45,600 nucleotides of DNA from Candidatus Saccharimonadales bacterium (lineage in GTDB: Bacteria; Patescibacteriota; Saccharimonadia; Saccharimonadales; UBA10212): assembly GCA_036507655.1 (NCBI GenBank), contig DATCIS010000011.1, positions 1-45,600 of the forward strand, written 5' to 3'. The translations under genes and the position numbers were made by a program. The notes under the pieces are model-generated. The model searched no databases. It saw only the letters and a list, made by a program, of their open reading frames with translations, and was not told the DNA's origin. Shown here piece after piece: positions 4,073 through 41,503 of this stretch; the first letter of the stretch is position 1, and each line of letters begins with the position of its first letter.

Positions 4073-4160
4073 GCGGCTTCGCCGTATGAGGGACAACCAA
4101 GGGTTTTCCCTCATCGCGCCGGGTACGGAATGAATCCGATACTCGGGCTGCTCCTTTTCC
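4073..4160. repeat. 88-nt structured intergenic element, copy 1 (copy 2 at 22706-22794)
   Basis: The first 42 nt match copy 2 at 41 of 42 positions. The central ~28 nt differ in sequence but form a hairpin in both copies. The last 17 nt (CGGGCTGCTCCTTTTCC) are identical. Confidence 0.7.
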
Positions 4161-17245: not shown

Positions 17246-18403
17246 ATGGCTAACAATTCAGACTCATTGTTTAAAAAAATAGATTACCGCGTGCCGGTAT
17301 ATGCCAACAGGCTTCTTTATATGTTCGGCGGCATTACATTGTCGTCCTTTCTGGTCTTGGGACTATCTGGCGCCTATTTAACCCAATTTTATAACCCGAC
17401 AATCGAGAAAGCCCATGATAGCATTCTGGCGTCAATCGCTAACGTGCCTTTATTTGATTTTATGCGCAGCCTACATTTTTGGATTGCTAACTTAGTGGTT
17501 TTTCTGCTACTGCTGCACGCTGTCAGAGTCTTTATTACCGGCTCTTATAAAAAACCCAGAAGACTGACTTGGTTAACTGGAGTATCCCTACTGTTTGTAA
17601 CTGTTACATATATTTTCGTGGGCAGTGTCCTAAGATGGGACCAAGAGGCCGTCGAGGCTTTCGGGCACGTCCAGGAGAGTATTGGTTTATTTGGCGTCCA
17701 GATTGGCTTAACCAATGCTGGCGTCCCCGTTATGACCCAGCTTTACTCTTGGCATATCACCATTCTTTATTTACTATTACTCGGCCTGTTATCAGTGCAT
17801 CTGTTCCTCATAAAGGCCAGGGGGATATCGCCCAAGCCAGCGAAAACGGCTGTTGCGGCAGCAACGGCCGGTCAAGGCAAATCGAGCTTTTTATTACACT
17901 TGCGTAGACTGACAGGTTTTAGCTTGCTTTTTCTAGTGTTGGCGAGTTTGCTGGCCATTGCTTTTCCAGCACCGATTGGCCAGCCTGGCATTCTCGAGCA
18001 AGAGGTTACTAGGCCACTATGGATGTTCTGGCCATTTTATGGGCTAGAAGATATTTTCGGTTTGAAGGGCTTGGTTTGGGGCATAGTGGGCTTTTTTGTG
18101 ATTTTGGCATTGTTTCCTTTCATAGACCGCGGTCCGTATGTTCACTGGGCAAAACGCAAGCTAGTTTTGGGTTTAGGTTTTATATTTTTAGCTACCGTTA
18201 TAGGTTTAGGAGTGTATTCCCGCCTCCAACCGGCCGAGGCACACATTGAAGAAAGCTCCGAGGCGCACACGGAAGAGGCCTCTGCTGACGAGCTAAATAT
18301 TAGCCATATGCGACTACGAAGTGAGGCTCTTTATTTGCTACCCATAACAGTTGCCATTGGTTTCGTTGGCGCACGTATGGCGTTCAAGCCTGCTAAAGAA
18401 TGA
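17246..18403 (+). CDS. Cytochrome b (bc1/b6-type, N- and C-terminal parts fused)
   Basis: ORF track. Contains SLHFWIANLVVFLLLLHAVRVFITGSYKKPRRLTWLTGV and FVGSVLRWDQ. A second His pair lies in WHITILYLLLLGLLSVHLF. It also has a PEWY-like PLWMFWPFYGL segment. Confidence 0.8.
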   Translation: MANNSDSLFKKIDYRVPVYANRLLYMFGGITLSSFLVLGLSGAYLTQFYNPTIEKAHDSILASIANVPLFDFMRSLHFWIANLVVFLLLLHAVRVFITGSYKKPRRLTWLTGVSLLFVTVTYIFVGSVLRWDQEAVEAFGHVQESIGLFGVQIGLTNAGVPVMTQLYSWHITILYLLLLGLLSVHLFLIKARGISPKPAKTAVAAATAGQGKSSFLLHLRRLTGFSLLFLVLASLLAIAFPAPIGQPGILEQEVTRPLWMFWPFYGLEDIFGLKGLVWGIVGFFVILALFPFIDRGPYVHWAKRKLVLGLGFIFLATVIGLGVYSRLQPAEAHIEESSEAHTEEASADELNISHMRLRSEALYLLPITVAIGFVGARMAFKPAKE

Positions 18404-18412
18404 ACGTCTATC

Positions 18413-18490
18413 TGGTGGAGCATGGCGGAGTCGAACCGCCGACCTCCGCAATGCGAATGCGGCGCTCTAGCCAACTGAGCTAATGCCCCC
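18413..18490 (-). tRNA. tRNA-Ala (anticodon CGC), CCA encoded
   Basis: Reverse complement reads GGGGGCA TTAGCTCAGTTGGCTAGAGC..CCGCA TTCGCAT TGCGG..GGTTCGACTCC..TGCTCC A CCA, with G3:U70. Confidence 0.9.
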
Positions 18491-18531: not shown

Positions 18532-18555
18532 GGCCGCCTGCTTAAGCAGGCGGCC
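18532..18555 (-). terminator. Strong intrinsic terminator (perfect 10-bp stem)
   Basis: GGCCGCCTGC TTAA GCAGGCGGCC. On the minus strand it is followed by TTTCTTATC. It lies downstream of ligA and the 18558-18772 element. Confidence 0.75.
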
Positions 18556-18557
18556 GG

Positions 18558-18772
18558 GAGGTGTTGGAGCTTCGCGCAGCCCACCCTGGGCCCGGGTTTT
18601 ACCCCATAGCAAGTCCTGAGCGGAGTAGTCTGCAATCAGATTACGGAGCTTCAAGGCTTTGCTACCGGGGCGAATTTTTGTAATTATTTTTCTCCGCGAA
18701 TTTTTTGTCTTCGTCCTGCTGTAATTATGCGAAGCAAATTACAACCGGAGGCCCGGTGCGCGAAGCTACCTC
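18558..18772. ncRNA. Candidate structured RNA (~215 nt) carrying the conserved 35-nt core, copy A; strand unresolved
   Basis: A long-range helix pairs GAGGT..AGCTTCGCGCA (18558-18578) with TGCGCGAAGCT ACCTC (18757-18772). The inner hairpin at 18602-18670 holds the core at 18615-18649, which matches 39917-39951 at 34 of 35 positions. Confidence 0.55.
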
Positions 18773-18788
18773 AATTACACGCTTGTGC

Positions 18789-21727
<2,939 letters not shown>

Positions 21728-21834: not shown

Positions 21835-22701
21835 TTAAAGTTTCATTTCACGAAGGGCTTTGATGCGAGCTTCAACCGGCGGGTGTGTACTAAATAAAGT
21901 GGCTAAGGTTTTACCAGAAAGCGGGTTGGCAAAGAACATATGCGCCGTTGCAGTATTCTGAATTCTGGTTTTACTCCCCTGCTTACCAATTTTCTCAAGT
22001 GCACCGGCCAGGCCCTCTGGGTATCTAGTAGTAAGGGCTCCGGTTGCATCAGCCAAATATTCTCGCCGGCGGCTGATGGCTAATTGCAACAAAGTCGCAG
22101 CTACAGGGGCTAAAATCACTGCCACAATCGCTAATACCGCGAAGAGTTGGTTGCGGTTGCCGTCCCGGCCGCCGAATATGGTGATGTGCCAAAAGAAATC
22201 GGCAATCATTGAAATGATGCCGACTAGAGCAAAAGCTATAGTGTTAACCCGCATATCGTAATTCTTAATATGCCCCAACTCGTGGGCCATTACGCCTTCA
22301 AGTTCATTGTCATCAAGAGCCTTCAGCAAACCGGTGGTCGCACAAACCGCTGCTTTATCCGGTTTACGACCGGTGGCGAAGGCGTTCAACGCCGGATCGT
22401 CCATGATATAGACTTTCGGCATCGACATACCCTCAGTTATTGCCAGGTTCTCAACAGTCCGCCATAGTCGAGGTTCATCTTTCTTCTGAATTTCTTTGGC
22501 GCGGTTGATTGCCAGAGCCATTTTAGCGCCGGCGAAATAACTGAAGATGGCGTAGCTTAGAGAAAAAAGCCCGATGAAGAAAAGTAGTCCCCTGTTACCA
22601 GTAGCTTGGCTTATCACGTAGGCAAAGGCCCAAAGTAGCGCCAAAAAGGCAGCCAGCAAAATAACAGTACGTCTTTTATTAGAAGAAATCTGTTCGTACA
22701 T
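21835..22701 (-). CDS. htpX: M48-family membrane zinc protease HtpX
   Basis: ORF track. Contains HELGHIKNYD, and a C-terminal motif STHPPVEARI. Confidence 0.93.
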   Translation of the reverse strand: MYEQISSNKRRTVILLAAFLALLWAFAYVISQATGNRGLLFFIGLFSLSYAIFSYFAGAKMALAINRAKEIQKKDEPRLWRTVENLAITEGMSMPKVYIMDDPALNAFATGRKPDKAAVCATTGLLKALDDNELEGVMAHELGHIKNYDMRVNTIAFALVGIISMIADFFWHITIFGGRDGNRNQLFAVLAIVAVILAPVAATLLQLAISRRREYLADATGALTTRYPEGLAGALEKIGKQGSKTRIQNTATAHMFFANPLSGKTLATLFSTHPPVEARIKALREMKL

Positions 22702-22705
22702 AGAA

Positions 22706-22794
22706 GCGGCTTCGCCGTATGAGGGACAACCTAGGGTTTTCCCTCATTGCTGCCTGCCAAAATGGTTCACATTTTGTCGGGCTGCTCCTTTTCC
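22706..22794. repeat. 88-nt structured intergenic element, copy 2
   Basis: See copy 1 at 4073-4160. It ends 4 nt before the htpX start codon (minus-strand sense). Confidence 0.7.
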
Positions 22795-26505: not shown

Positions 26506-26538
26506 AAAAACGCAACATTAGTAACGAGTTGCGTTTTT
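26506..26538. terminator. Conserved terminator-like hairpin X1 (A5-stem-loop-stem-T5)
   Basis: AAAAACGCAAC / GTTGCGTTTTT, an 11-bp stem, followed by GAGAGGAG. Its arms match X2 at 27117-27148. It lies downstream of a TATAAT at 26492-26497 and upstream of tRNA-Leu. Confidence 0.6.
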
Positions 26539-26632
26539 GAGAGGAGGAAGCGACCTGAGGCTGTAAGTACTTTTACTTGATCGAGTGGTAGGGTTGTAAA
26601 AAGTATGGAAGCCGACACGTCGATTCCGACGA

Positions 26633-27116: not shown

Positions 27117-27148
27117 AAAAACGCAAGATCTGGTCGAGTTGCGTTTTT
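27117..27148. terminator. Conserved terminator-like hairpin X2
   Basis: AAAAACGCAA / TTGCGTTTTT followed by GAGAGGAG. It has the same arms as X1 with a different loop, and lies between TGGTATAAT and tRNA-Gly. Confidence 0.6.
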
Positions 27149-27233
27149 GAGAGGAGCGACATAGCACTAAGCCGAAGCTTTTGGCTTTAGACCCATCAAA
27201 GACAAAACGAGGCGAGCGCGTTAGTCGCGACGA

Positions 27234-27992: not shown

Positions 27993-28024
27993 GATGTTTG
28001 AAATGCGTCAACGATGCCGCACCA
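27993..28024 (+). repeat. GCACCA-terminated structured motif, copy R1
   Basis: GATGTTTGAAATGCGTCAACGATGCCGCACCA. Matches R2 at 28 of 32 positions. Confidence 0.7.
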
Positions 28025-28154
28025 TTATAGTTGCCTTCCAGTAAGCCTTTTAGGGGAGAATTTCACAGACAAAACCTGAGTTAAAGATTATGTAAAACAT
28101 GTTTTAAGTTTTACACTTACTAAAGATGTAACTCTAATGAAAGGGGTAAATGAA

Positions 28155-28541: not shown

Positions 28542-28672
28542 AAGATCAAAAAATAGTTTCAAGTCCTTGATTAGATCCTAAACACAAGACACTAAGCCGG
28601 CTTCAAGTATTAAGTAAGTCGCCTGATAATCCGAATAACTCAACCAGGCGCTTTAGTTTATAATCTGTTATA

Positions 28673-28716
28673 GCAGCGATAGCTGACGTTTGAAATGCGT
28701 CAACTATGTTGCACCA
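28673..28716 (+). repeat. GCACCA-terminated structured motif, copy R2 (full hairpin)
   Basis: GCAGC G ATAG CT GACGT TTGAAAT GCGTC AA CTAT GTTGC ACCA. It forms three stacked helices and a 7-nt loop. Confidence 0.7.
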
Positions 28717-28796
28717 ATTCAACCCAAACGATACTTCAACCGGGAGCTTTCTAACATTTGGGGTCATTAAGGCCTCTTTTTGTTATAGTTAGATTA

Positions 28797-30748: not shown

Positions 30749-30852
30749 AACCAGTGGTTGAAAAATTCAATCAGGCATCAAGCAGGTTGCCCGATAAGTT
30801 AAACACCTCAGCAAGGTGTTTTAGTTTATAATCATTATTAGCGGTGAGGGAT

Positions 30853-30884
30853 GACGTTTGAAATGCGTAAACTATCCTGCACCA
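30853..30884 (+). repeat. GCACCA-terminated structured motif, copy R3
   Basis: GACGTTTGAAATGCGTAAACTATCCTGCACCA. Matches R2 at 29 of 32 positions. Similarity to R2 extends about 70 nt further upstream and includes TTTAGTTTATAATC. Confidence 0.7.
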
Positions 30885-30885
30885 A

Positions 30886-30915
30886 AAAAATTCCCAACCA
30901 AGGTCGGGAATTTTT
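30886..30915. terminator. Bidirectional intrinsic terminator
   Basis: AAAAATTCCC aaccaaggtc GGGAATTTTT. It sits between the convergent 29093-30748 (plus) and 30940-31083 (minus) genes. Confidence 0.7.
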
Positions 30916-37074: not shown

Positions 37075-39885
37075 CTAAATGATTTTTGCCAGGAATTGAC
37101 CGGTGTAGCTTAATTTATTTTTAGCGACTTGCTCGGGTGTGCCTGTAGCAACGATTTTACCGCCGGCATCGCCGCCCTCAGGCCCCATATCAATGATGCG
37201 GTCGGCTGATTTTATCACATCCAAGTTGTGTTCGATAACGATTATACTGTTGCCGCTATCGACTAAAGCGTGTAGCACTTTTAGCAGTTTGGCAACATCT
37301 GCCATGTGTAAACCGGTAGTCGGCTCGTCCAAGATATAGAGCGTGCGTCCCGTAGGCCGGCGGCTCAATTCGGTCGCTAATTTGACGCGCTGGGCTTCGC
37401 CGCCAGAGAGAGTTGTAGCTGGCTGACCAAGCGTGATGTAGCCAAGCCCTACATCTACCAGAGTCTGTAACTTACGGGCGATGGCCGGAATGTTTTCAAA
37501 AAACTCCAAGGCTTGCTCACACGTCATATCCAGCACATCGCTGACAGTTTTACCCTTGTAGTGAATCTCTAGTGCCTCCCGGTTGTAGCGTTTACCATGG
37601 CAGACCTCGCAGGACACATAAACATCCGGTAAGAAGTGCATTTCAATCTTTATCATTCCGTCGCCAGAACAGTTTTCGCAACGCCCACCCTTGACGTTGA
37701 AGCTAAAACGCCCAGGCATATAGCCGCGTAATCTGGCTTCCGGTATGGCGGCGAAGAGCTCGCGGATAGGTGTGAATACCCCGGTGTAGGTGGCCGGGTT
37801 GGAGCGCGGTGTCCGGCCAATCGGTGACTGGTCTATAACAACCGCTTTATCGAGATGATTAATGCCTTCAATATCATCATGCCTCCCCGGAACAGTATGG
37901 GCCCGCATAAGCCTGGCGCTTAGTTCGCGCGCCAAGATGTCATTAACCAAGCTTGATTTACCGGATCCAGAAACGCCACTGACGACTACCAGCTGACCTA
38001 AAGGAATGGTTACATCAATGCTTTTGAGATTATTCTCTCGGGCTCCCTTGACAGTCAGTACCTTGCCGTTGCCGGGTCGCCGAAATTTTGGCGTTGGAAT
38101 AATTTTATCGCCGCGCAAAAATTCGGCGGTGGAGCTGTTTTTGGCCTTGGCTACCTCAGGCGGTGTTCCGGTGGCGACAATTTCTCCGCCATGAATCCCG
38201 GCACCGGGGCCAATATCTACAAGGAAATCTGCCGATCTTATTGTTTCCTCATCATGCTCTACGACAATTACCGAATTACCCAAATCACGCAATCGCTCCA
38301 ATGTGTTGAGTAGCCGTTTGTTATCGCGCTGGTGCAGGCCGATGCTGGGCTCGTCCAATACATAAAGTACCCCCTGCAAACCGGAGCCTATTTGGGTAGC
38401 TAAGCGTATGCGTTGAGCCTCCCCGCCGGCGAGCGAAACGGCACTGCGTGACAAGGTCAGATAATTCAGCCCGACGTCTTGTAGAAACTTAAGGCGAGCA
38501 TTGATTTCTTTTAAGATTTGGCGAGCTATTTCCTGCTCTTTGGGGTTCAACTTAATTTTTTGGAAAAAGTCCAAGGCTTTATCTATATCCAAATAACAGA
38601 TGTCCATAATATTTTTATCGGCTACCGTCACCGCTAGCACCTCGGGCTTAAGGCGTTTTCCCTCACAAGCGTGGCAGGGCCGTTCTTGCATAAAACGTTC
38701 AATTTCGCGACGCATAAAGTCGCTTTGGGTTTCTCTATGGCGGCGCTCCAAATTGGGAATTACTCCTTCGTACGTCGTACCAAAAGACCGCCCCATACTT
38801 AGTCCGACCCGATAAGATTCATTGCCTGTGCCGTAGAGGATAATATCCAATTGTCTTTTGGTTAGCTCGACAGTTGGCTGATGGATGGAAAAGCCATAGC
38901 GGTCCCCCACGGCCTGCAGCTTTTTGATGTACCAAGAGTCGGTACTGATACGGTTATATGGCCGGATGGCGCCCTCAGCAATCGTTAGCCGGCCATTAGG
39001 GATTACCAGCTCCGGATCAACCTCCAGCCGGCTACCCAGCCCTGTACAAACCGGGCAAGCCCCGTGAGGAGAGTTAAAGCTGAATGTCCTTGGTTCGAGC
39101 TCTGGGATAGCCACATCGGGATGATCAACGCAAGCGTATTTAAGCGAGAAATTGATGTCTTCCTTAGTATCGGCGTTGTGAACAACCAGCAGCCCGTCGG
39201 CTATATCGAAAGCCTGCTCAACACTTTGAGCTAGGCGGCCGCGGCTTTCCTCATCATTAACCAACCTATCAACCACCACCTCGATGTTGTGCTTGAAATT
39301 CTTGTTGAGAGACGGAAATTCATCAAGGGCGTAGGCCACACCATCGACACGTACCCTGGCATAACCGGCGCGTTGGTATTGCTCGGGTATGTGCTCAAAC
39401 GCGCCTTTTTTATCAATCACTATCGGCGCCAATATCATTAAGCGACTGCCTTTTAAACCATTGATAATCTGGTCAACCACGGCGGCTGAAGTCTGGCGGG
39501 CAACCGGCTTACCACAGATAGGGCAATGCGGGATACCGACTCGCGCAAATAGCAGGCGCAAATAATCATAGATTTCTGTGACGGTGGCAACGGTGCTGCG
39601 TGGATTACGGCTGGTGGATTTCTGATCAATGCTGATGGCCGGACTTAGACCGTCAATTTGGTCGACGTCAGGCTTTTCCATCAAACCCAAAAATTGCCGG
39701 GCATAAGCGCTCAAAGATTCAACGTAACGGCGTTGGCCTTCGGCGTAGATGGTATCAAAAGCCAGAGACGATTTACCGGAGCCGGAAAGCCCAGTGATAA
39801 CCACTAATTTCTCTCTGGGAATCTCCAAAGAAATATTCTTTAAGTTATGTTCCCTAGCTCCTTGGACTTTGATTACTCCACTCAT
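37075..39885 (-). CDS. uvrA: Excinuclease ABC subunit A
   Basis: ORF track. Two ABC ATPase modules ([10 protein letters not shown] and [10 protein letters not shown]), Zn-finger Cys clusters and LSGGEAQR signatures. Confidence 0.97.
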
Positions 39886-39892
39886 AATGATT

Positions 39893-39988
39893 GAGGTTAC
39901 TTGCCCCGTACCAAAACCTGAGCGGAGTAGTCTGCAATCAGATTATGGAGCGTCAAGTTTTTGGTACTGGGGTGCTCCCGTGCACCTC
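39893..39988. ncRNA. Candidate structured RNA carrying the conserved 35-nt core, copy B; lies between the uvrA start codon and a minus-strand TATAAT
   Basis: GAGGT (39893-39897) pairs with ACCTC (39984-39988). The inner hairpin is 39904-39972 and the core is 39917-39951. The outer stem GTACCAAAA / TTTTGGTAC differs from copy A (TAGCAA / TTGCTA) but keeps its pairing. Confidence 0.55.
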
Positions 39989-40081: not shown

Positions 40082-41503
40082 TCAGATTACCCGCGTAACC
40101 GAGCCGGCATATTCTTTTAAATCTTCAAGTAAGTGAGTCCTTTCTCTGTTTAACTCCGGGGTTTTGCTTAGCTCCTCAAGCTGGGCCGAGAATCTATCTA
40201 ATAAGCTGGCTTTACCACTAAGTAGTTTCTGCCGACGGAATTTTTGCCAAATCTGGCGTTCTGGCTCCGATAGAGCCTCTGGGAAGTTACGGGCTTTATA
40301 AAGCGGCAGCAAAGCTTTTAGGCGCCCGTCTTGGAATTCTAAACTCAATTTTGCTAGCTCGCTAGGCTTGGCCGCCCGTACCACCGACATTTTGGCTTTA
40401 TCCTGGTCTTTGACAAAAGAGTCATAAAGTTGGCCATCAACCTTTTGTTCGTCAATGACCAGATCCGGTTGCCTTGGTGGCCACATCTTATCAAGGGCCT
40501 GGAGCAGTTTTTCACCAAAGCCCCTAGCCTTTTGCAGTTTTTCAAGATGGTTGCCGGCTACCATCTTATTAAGCTGCAGCCGTTTGGCGCTGGACGGATC
40601 AAGTACGCTGAGTGGAGCGATAGCCGGGCAACGGTTATATTGCAGCAGTTTGATTGGAAAGTAAGCGGCGTCATCAGAGCGATCGGCCCATCGTTTGGCT
40701 AGCTCTTCGACCGTCAAATCTCTGAGTTCATCAGGGTCAACCCGCAGATCGTACATTAGGCAGCCGGTCTTATCTGGTTTCTCTGCTACCATTACGGCAA
40801 TCGTCGTCTTATTGTACTCAGACGGGTAACGACCACTGGTATAAATCAACGGGTCGCCCTTGGTTACCAGCGGCGCGACCTTGTGCTTGCTGCGGATGTT
40901 TAAAAGAAACTCGAAGATTTTTGGCTGTTTCTCTTTGAGCATCCGAGCTACAGCGATGGAGGCTCGGACATCGCTCATGGCATCGTGGGCATCGACGTGA
41001 TCAAGCTTATTAACGGCGCTGATATATTCCAAACTGTTAGTCGGCTTGCCGTCCGGAGCATACGGCCAATTAATACCGTCCGGTCGCAGCGCCCTAGTCA
41101 TCCGCACTACGTCTAAAAGGTCCCAGACAGAACAGTTATTCTTCCAAGTCCATTCGTAAGCATCATGGAAGTTTCGCCAAAGGGTAAAGCGGACAAAATC
41201 GTTATCAAACCTGATATTGTTATAGCCGACGATGATTGTATCCTTTATAGATACTTGACTTGTTAAGTATTTTGCAAACTCGGCTTCGGTTACTCCCTCT
41301 GTTAAAGTCTTTTGCGGTAAGATGCCGTGCACCAAGATAGCACCTGGTTCCGGTAAAACATCTGGTGTCATTTTTATCAAGACGTTGTCCGGCTTACCTA
41401 TTGGATTGAGGGCCATATCGGTCCGCTGCCCGGCAAACTGCATAATCCGGTCAGTCCTAGGATTGAACCCACTGGTCTCAACATCAAAAAAGTAAAGGGT
41501 CAC
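40082..41503 (-). CDS. sbcB: Exodeoxyribonuclease I
   Basis: ORF track. DEDDh exonuclease motifs (FFDVETSG, YNNIRFDNDF, HDAMSDV) plus an ExoI C-terminal region. GTG start directly abuts the obg stop. Confidence 0.88.
   Translation of the reverse strand: MTLYFFDVETSGFNPRTDRIMQFAGQRTDMALNPIGKPDNVLIKMTPDVLPEPGAILVHGILPQKTLTEGVTEAEFAKYLTSQVSIKDTIIVGYNNIRFDNDFVRFTLWRNFHDAYEWTWKNNCSVWDLLDVVRMTRALRPDGINWPYAPDGKPTNSLEYISAVNKLDHVDAHDAMSDVRASIAVARMLKEKQPKIFEFLLNIRSKHKVAPLVTKGDPLIYTSGRYPSEYNKTTIAVMVAEKPDKTGCLMYDLRVDPDELRDLTVEELAKRWADRSDDAAYFPIKLLQYNRCPAIAPLSVLDPSSAKRLQLNKMVAGNHLEKLQKARGFGEKLLQALDKMWPPRQPDLVIDEQKVDGQLYDSFVKDQDKAKMSVVRAAKPSELAKLSLEFQDGRLKALLPLYKARNFPEALSEPERQIWQKFRRQKLLSGKASLLDRFSAQLEELSKTPELNRERTHLLEDLKEYAGSVTRVI

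Follow-up and report, generated by a model that had tools for sequence, protein, structure and literature searches.

The window, by which we mean the whole 45.6 kb stretch of DNA analysed, contains two copies of a palindromic repeat of ~73 nt, here called E, that is probably a non-autonomous mobile or selfish interspersed element of soil and groundwater Saccharibacteria, similar to the Rickettsia palindromic elements (RPE) and to REP sequences. E carries no gene. Its copies are dispersed at unrelated loci in both orientations, and sites in tsaB and downstream of ligA are polymorphic for its presence or absence. A full-text search of the literature found no description of such a repeat, or of such an RNA, in Saccharibacteria or CPR bacteria.

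The two copies in the window

Copy A occupies positions 18596..18674 of the plus strand (cmsearch score 89.4 bits; repeat family D5), with the hairpin proper at 18602-18670 and the conserved core at 18615-18649. Its 5' tail is degenerate, TTTTA being found in place of the usual GCYTG. Copy B, also on the plus strand, lies at 39898..39976 (97.6 bits), with the tail CTTG at 39900-39903 and the hairpin at 39904-39972. An earlier note on this DNA had drawn attention to a 35-nt core, CCTGAGCGGAGTAGTCTGCAATCAGATTACGGAGC, at 18615-18649 that recurs at 39917-39951 with one C>T change, and had observed that the stems enclosing the two cores differ in sequence while pairing is retained in both; each observation was confirmed. 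No core matches are expected by chance, none having been seen in 100 shuffles, and both strands of both regions fold better than shuffled sequences, with z-scores of -3.8 to -5.8.

Both copies are antisense to their neighbours. Copy A is opposite in sense to ligA, which encodes the NAD-dependent DNA ligase (18789..20813, minus strand; Pfam DNA_ligase_aden, OB, HHH and BRCT domains). Copy B is antisense both to uvrA (37075..39885, minus strand; Pfam UvrA domains), from whose start codon it is separated by 15 nt, and to an exonuclease I-like gene (40082..41503, minus strand; RNase_T and Exonuc_X-T_C domains) which is upstream of it on the minus strand and whose stop codon is 109 nt away. The 5' untranslated region of uvrA includes the complement of copy B. 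Promoter-like matches near the window copies occur on the minus strand only, among them a site at 40050->40022 near uvrA.

Distribution of the repeat

An exact-pattern scan of a genome collection with the core retrieved 16 loci, all of them in Saccharibacteria or Patescibacteria MAGs, with one to three per genome. A covariance model and a wider search had been proposed as a check on the original observation. Such a model, built from 18 copies and used to search the collected loci and metagenomes, matched many copies: it revealed extra copies in the loci of the core scan, and more than 130 copies in at least 118 metagenome loci. Scanning with the basal stem (GCYTGCCCCGCACYAAAWCCTGA) instead of the core gave 33 new loci. 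Among the matches listed, exact-pattern scans and covariance model together amount to about 150 to 200 copies. Every named genome match is to a Saccharibacteria or Patescibacteria MAG, and the carriers are Saccharibacteria of soil and groundwater. Single MAGs, for example MGCV01 and JACOWW01, hold at least nine or ten copies at unrelated loci. Two metagenome matches (L085 and L088) were discarded as chance occurrences of the core inside an unrelated ORF, without the stems. Viral contigs gave no matches to E, on which ground a phage origin was rejected.

Fold, covariation and strand

At the base of E a 5' tail (GCYTG) leads into a CCCC/GGGG clamp. The lower helix, ~14 bp long, has fixed bulges; above it come a 3x3 internal loop rich in purines and an 8-bp upper helix, which contains a fixed G.T wobble and is capped by a YAAU loop. 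Among the unpaired parts, the tail, (T)GCYTG, and the internal and apical loops are conserved. The tail directly precedes the CCCC clamp, with residue counts of G(79)C(89)Y T(91)G(88) among 103 sequences.

Covariation of the hairpin, previously claimed from the two window copies, is borne out across the family. In 103 distinct sequences 93.5% of cells are paired, compared with 82.4% in shuffles and 35-45% in slid controls, and compensatory changes are seen in 23 of 27 pairs, compared with a shuffle mean of 14.9, although these counts overstate independence because the sequences were aligned to the model, patterns derived from E were used to ascertain the loci, and many of the sequences are related. 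None of 500 shuffles equalled the observed values. Mutual information across the alignment recovers the helix and nothing else. A pseudoknot pairing the 5' tail (UUGC) with the apical loop (GCAA) was rejected, as it has no mutual-information support and several copies do not fit it.

Read on the plus strand of the window, the pairs comprise 2309 Watson-Crick cells, 263 G.U and 38 A.C. Since the pair types are thus strand-asymmetric, the fold can be assigned to the plus strand, and the argument from G-U wobbles first made for the window copies holds for the family as a whole.

No Rfam family explains the hairpin, in keeping with the earlier impression that it belongs to no known RNA family. At the gathering threshold Rfam matched only tRNAs in the window, neither copy being hit, and only tRNAs in eight related loci. 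Raising the E-value limit to 10 produced nothing on both copies beyond terminator-like and miRNA-like noise of 8-15 bits.

The GGA/GGA internal loop reported for the window copies is indeed present in both, and its apparent invariance elsewhere arose because the core-based searches required it. In the less biased set of copies retrieved with the basal stem, the loop reads GGA, GAA, AAA, GTA, GCA or TTAA on its 5' side. The apical part is modular. One form is GUAGUCUG-CAAU-CAGAUUAC, a compensated variant is GCAGUCGG-UAAU-CGGAUUGC, and a third form with a different upper helix is GAAGAGRRR-GAAUA-YYYCUAUUUC; extended apical stems also occur in some copies. Three genomes (L145, L153 and L167) contain a composite of ~165 nt in which ~75 nt with an antisense core are found inside the apical loop, and tandem, inverted and loop-nested arrangements are all seen. 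Few decayed copies were encountered among the extra copies found without the core pattern.

Some copies lie within in-phase tandem arrays of heptamers, such as GGTAAAT/GGTTAAT, CATTGAC and ATTGAAA, that extend on both sides (L152, L157, L001 1740-1900, L006, L066 and L038). These arrays may have served as targets, may have arisen as by-products of insertion, or may belong to a longer sub-family.

Genomic context

E is found in either orientation relative to neighbouring genes. By crude ORF calling, its flanking genes were classed as opposite/opposite in 38 cases, same/opposite in 27, same/same in 18 and opposite/same in 15. Sense copies are found between rpsH and rplF, between atpA and atpG, and directly upstream of ychF, while five genomes have an antisense copy 7-19 nt upstream of dnaJ. 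Both the dnaJ and the ychF placements are retained across several species, so that movement of the repeat is not rapid everywhere. The other neighbours are diverse housekeeping genes, alaS and ksgA among them, and several copies supply the TGA stop codon of a convergent gene, as for alaS in L002.

A linked protein gene was not apparent when 781 neighbouring ORFs were clustered: only housekeeping families emerged, none of them enriched. In the regions around copies, no transposase-like gene was enriched within 2.5 kb, and neither a TnpA nor a TnpB gene was present near them. An own promoter for E was rejected, there being no -10 or -35 box at a fixed distance upstream, as was a general role as terminator, given that a T-run follows the hairpin in only ~15% of copies. 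The same two observations, the lack of a conserved promoter and the scarcity of T-runs, mean that E does not have the attributes of a stand-alone sRNA gene. Nor does it have those of a cis-regulatory RNA of the adjacent gene, the neighbours being diverse and the orientation variable.

Flanking direct repeats are enriched, with a shared word of at least 6 nt at 20 of 116 copies compared with 3.6 +/- 2.0 in shuffles. Neither their length nor their offset is constant, and they are partly attributable to a longer sub-family or to the heptamer arrays. There are no terminal inverted repeats beyond the hairpin and there is no consistent target-site duplication, so that the canonical signature of a transposon is missing from these copies. 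The tsaB and ligA sites suggested insertion into pre-existing palindromes, an idea that was rejected when flank complementarity proved to be 2.91 compared with 2.87 in shuffles.

Insertions within genes

E lies in frame inside seven genes: tsaB, tsaC (Sua5/YrdC), murB, a Mur ligase gene, a pseudouridine synthase gene, tgt and mpg. In MurB, Sua5/YrdC, the Mur ligase, the pseudouridine synthase, TGT and MPG it falls within Pfam domains, and three reading frames are used.

Most TsaB homologues have 130 residues; carriers of E have 153-159, and in them 24-26 residues are inserted at a single codon position. Where E is antisense to the host transcript, as in most tsaB copies, the inserted residues are NP.TKISKL.NPITDYSARDLVRGKQ, and where it is sense they are KPAPHQNLSGVVGNRITERQVFGAGS. 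At the DNA level the empty allele of L168 is CTTAAC-CAG-TTAAGT, and filled alleles have at this point a unit of ~72 nt, CYTG-CCCC...GGGG. When TsaB sequences were clustered by distance with the insert removed, giving a short and noisy tree, carriers were interspersed among empty alleles, which implies several gains or losses. The tsaB copies of E are 92-97% identical to one another, compared with 61-81% for the adjacent coding DNA, and one of them shows a compensated change. Copies at unrelated loci are near-identical between genomes whose proteins share roughly 70% identity.

The same tsaB codon also accommodates a third, unrelated palindromic insert of ~23 residues (ISVKPSRLDLSSEAAKMAKNRERYKLS), seen in L169 1501-1962 (P0012) and in P0020. 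Even when empty, the site forms a 20-bp palindrome, ATACTTAAC-CA-GTTAAGTAT, and the position looks like an insertion hot spot.

In five loci (L035 ~826-960, L069 ~2535-2700, L103 ~1190-1345, L027 1466-1602 and L036 ~100-230) a real tRNA gene is followed by a degenerate tRNA-like one in which E separates the T-stem from the T-loop. The 5' end of this tRNA-like gene resembles an acceptor and its D loop (TAGAGYGGTCG) is class-II-like; it also has a short hairpin and a T arm, and CCA is encoded. A tRNA reading of L027, with acceptor, D arm and T arm around E, was rejected since ARAGORN called none with E present or deleted, and Rfam made no call at the tRNA-like loci with E or after its removal. 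The 'acceptor' of L027 is partly the 3' remnant of another copy of E.

The covarying stems had originally been offered as textbook evidence for a structured RNA. They do covary, but because E is in frame inside seven coding genes, and in both orientations, covariation is here no proof of an RNA gene. E mimics a structured RNA closely enough that its covariation would pass standard tests.

A separate structure downstream of ligA

The region between ligA and the following terminator had been interpreted in the earlier note as a single RNA of ~215 nt enclosing the hairpin. Alignment and consensus folding instead reveal a host structure at 18556..18772 on the minus strand that is interrupted by copy A. 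The 11-bp long-range helix described there is present, with AGCTTCGCGCA at 18568-18578 and its reverse complement at 18757-18767, and is also conserved in L174. Hairpin and long-range structure are nonetheless separable, since some loci have the latter without E and in L174/L159 E is inverted. The proposed GAGGT/ACCTC closure is found around both window copies but is absent from L170, L172, L173, L174 and other copies.

Relatives of this region were fetched with the LigA C-terminus, and among these loci ~110 nt after the ligA stop codon are conserved on the ligA-sense strand. In the window, helix P1 pairs 18757-18767 with 18568-18578, P2 pairs ~18750-18756 with 18590-18596, and P3 is a hairpin at ~18718-18746 with the loop UGCUUCGCA, followed by an A-rich linker. 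In the consensus, P1 is AGCUUCGCGCA with UGCGCGAAGCY and P2 is CCGGGC with GCCCGG; then come P3, with the loop CYUCGCA, the A-rich linker, GGGUGGGC, a terminator and often tRNA-Ala. The stem of P3 covaries (CCGG/CCGG, CUAG/CUAG, GUAAUU/AAUUAC and one G.U) and is alone in doing so, because P1 and P2 are invariant among six sequences. The window structure is closed by an intrinsic terminator (GGCCGCCTGCTTAAGCAGGCGGCC then TTTCTTATC; 18532..18555, minus strand; terminator scan), downstream of which, on the same strand, is tRNA-Ala(CGC) at 18413..18489, identified by ARAGORN and Rfam. A hairpin and T-run occupy the terminator position in L170, L172, L173, L174 and L176, and the order ligA, structure, terminator, tRNA-Ala recurs in L170 and L173.

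The structure occurs without E at L170 2115-2289, L172 2118-2291, L173 2117-2290 and L176 2419-2590. Where E is present, it is found in three different places or orientations within ~20 nt: in the window it lies antisense before CCCGGGCCC; in L174/L159 (and, by its flanks, L091) it is sense, within CCCGG|GCCC; and in L182 (and, by its flanks, L178) it is antisense and adjoins GGGTGGGC. The ambiguity of strand that had been remarked upon for this region is thereby resolved, since a minus-strand host structure, with its terminator, is overlaid by a repeat that folds on the plus strand.

Rfam contains no family that matches the ligA-downstream structure. It may be a 3' UTR element of ligA or a small RNA of a Saccharimonadales sub-clade and, being undescribed, constitutes a second RNA candidate, separate from E. 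A stretch reading ACCUCC precedes the terminator in some versions, and in L176 (UBA6824) a small ORF at ~2100-2410 lies between the ligA stop codon and the conserved structure.

Other repeats and genes in the window

A second repeated hairpin was noticed at 4073-4117 and 22706-22750, the two copies being 96% identical; on the minus strand it reads GCGATGAGGGAAAACCNNGGTTGTCCCTCATACGGCGAAGCCGC. The motif is also found at L027 1339-1367, directly upstream of tRNA-Gln, and at L003 7178-7206. Only 5 nt separate the end of one copy from the start of a minus-strand ORF at 21835-22701, and the hairpin could be promoter-associated. An exact 22-nt repeat, CGAGTTGCGTTTTTGAGAGGAG, adjoins tRNA genes at 26525-26546 and 27135-27156, and recurs near tRNA genes in relatives (L159 ~850-880, and L182); it may be part of a hairpin or terminator common to tRNA clusters. 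Three related repeats of ~50-115 nt, 63-75% identical and containing GACGTTTGAAATGCGTCAAC...GCACCA, are located downstream of plus-strand ORFs (27993-28040, 28603-28732 and 30771-30900). Finally, a cytochrome b family gene at 17246-18403 on the plus strand, preceded by DsbD-like and thioredoxin-fold genes, has a syntenic counterpart at L159 1046-2206. Saccharibacteria are usually described as fermentative, and such a gene is unexpected in them.

Origin and possible functions of the repeat

If E is a mobile repeat, a trans-acting enzyme would recognise its folded plus strand, as ssDNA or RNA, and copy or move it. Recognition of this kind would account for the kept G.T wobbles, the conserved loop and tail and the covarying stems. 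By analogy, the closest model for the mobiliser may be an HUH/Y1 transposase of the RAYT or IS200/IS605 type, and the regions around copies yielded no mobilising enzyme or transposase. Copy A would have landed antisense inside the separate, ligA-sense host structure, and copy B antisense in the uvrA leader. The conservation of E is stronger than would be expected for neutral selfish DNA, which fits a recent expansion from a conserved master copy, gene conversion among the copies or selection on the fold.

A different view, to which we assign a rather low probability, is that E is a dispersed functional module of structured RNA, for example a self-cleaving ribozyme, a protein-binding hairpin or a retro-mobile intermediate, whose plus-strand fold is selected. 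Compensatory changes in 23 of 27 pairs and the 7:1 excess of G.U over A.C would be natural for an RNA, as would conservation of the symmetric purine-rich loop and the fixed G.U; yet the 5' side of that loop varies when sampling does not demand it, and there is no likeness to any Rfam ribozyme. Known small ribozymes are also multi-copy and orientation-free. On the other hand about two thirds of copies in tandem-gene contexts, and most of those in tsaB, are antisense to the host transcript, copies are located inside seven ORFs, and there is no conserved promoter upstream or general terminator downstream. The module would still explain why nucleotide conservation of E is well above that of essential host genes and why few decayed copies were found without the core pattern. 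It is comparably doubtful that the plus-strand fold is itself the active agent, a very small structured RNA or ssDNA that catalyses its own spread or serves as its template, or is a fold on which a conserved host protein depends and which the cell therefore now maintains. Were it active in this sense, the slow evolution of E (92-97% identity in tsaB compared with 61-81% nearby), the fixed wobble and purine-rich loop, and the paucity of decayed copies would be explained.

We think it improbable that E is a DNA site acting in cis and kept by the host, a hairpin or cruciform of one strand used for priming, replication restart or recombination. The strand-specific wobble pattern, the high conservation across species, the roughly ten or more copies per ~1-Mb genome and a 2:1 orientation bias relative to flanking genes would suit a site of this kind. 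A positioned site is hard to reconcile, however, with insertions in seven coding sequences and nested copies, or with presence and absence at orthologous sites. Furthermore, the folding strand is usually the template strand of the neighbours, which would not be the fork-exposed strand if genes are co-oriented with replication.

Very unlikely indeed is a single ~215-nt RNA, a ligA 3' UTR element or sRNA, with a shorter copy regulating uvrA in a DNA-repair regulon, for although both window copies adjoin DNA-repair genes (ligA and uvrA), the whole region folds with z-scores of -4.9 and -5.8 and the long-range helix is conserved in L174, this reading is contradicted by the empty sites of L170, L172, L173 and L176, by the inverted hairpin of L174/L159 and its other positions in L182 and L178, by a closure (GAGGT/ACCTC) that is not conserved, and by the unrelated genes (rpsH, atpA, ychF, dnaJ, alaS, ksgA) that most other copies adjoin.

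As a mobile repeat, E presents a hazard for annotation, since it lengthens or truncates ORFs and splits a tRNA-like gene. It could also be usable as a marker for strain typing in metagenomes.

Comparison with known systems

In-frame palindromic repeats in essential genes are best known from Rickettsia. The RPEs are short palindromes of a host-dependent bacterium with a reduced genome that occur in intergenic DNA and also in frame in unrelated housekeeping genes, whose products thereby gain a conserved peptide, and they have no transposase of their own (PMC10969869). E shares their hallmark, having inserted in frame in unrelated genes, seven in number, while keeping the host ORF open. It differs in length (~73 nt compared with ~100-150 nt), in the phylum of its host and in its strand-asymmetric, RNA-like fold, with a fixed wobble and purine-rich loop, that is accepted in both orientations at one codon. 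Given the differences in phylum and length, homology to the described RPE families is unlikely. The presence of E in Saccharibacteria, a tiny, host-dependent lineage, suggests that in-gene palindromes recur in reduced genomes.

MITEs such as Correia, ERIC, BOX/RUP, QMITE and Nezha are likewise small, non-autonomous and multi-copy, form hairpins when transcribed, and sometimes provide stop codons or fuse with ORFs (PMC10969869). The several copies of E that give a convergent gene its TGA stop codon recall this behaviour. A MITE, however, has terminal inverted repeats matching a parent IS and a fixed target-site duplication, whereas E is one hairpin whose outer stems covary instead of keeping their sequence and whose flanking duplications are not uniform.

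The subterminal hairpins of IS200/IS605 elements and of their PATE derivatives are recognised strand-specifically as ssDNA, with conserved irregularities and an adjacent guide or cleavage motif. Whereas E is a single hairpin, these elements bear unlike hairpins at their left and right ends, and their target is 4-5 nt long.

A REP is an imperfect hairpin with conserved stem mismatches and a short single-stranded 5' motif, GTAG, of which one folded strand is selected; REPs are mostly extragenic, often near the 3' ends of genes, and occur as singlets or as tandem and inverted pairs, and REP and REPIN sequences are mobilised by RAYTs, which are Y1 HUH transposases. E shares the extragenic preference, the frequent location close to 3' ends and the singlet, tandem and inverted arrangements. 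The imperfect hairpin of E, preceded by its own conserved short 5' motif (GCYTG rather than GTAG), resembles that of REP by analogy only. E is longer, enters ORFs and numbers roughly ten or more per genome where REPs number hundreds. Its conservation extends across species with ~60-70% protein identity, while REPs tend to be confined to one species. We regard E, with reasonable confidence, as a new mobile palindromic repeat family, similar to the Rickettsia elements in behaviour and to REP hairpins in anatomy.
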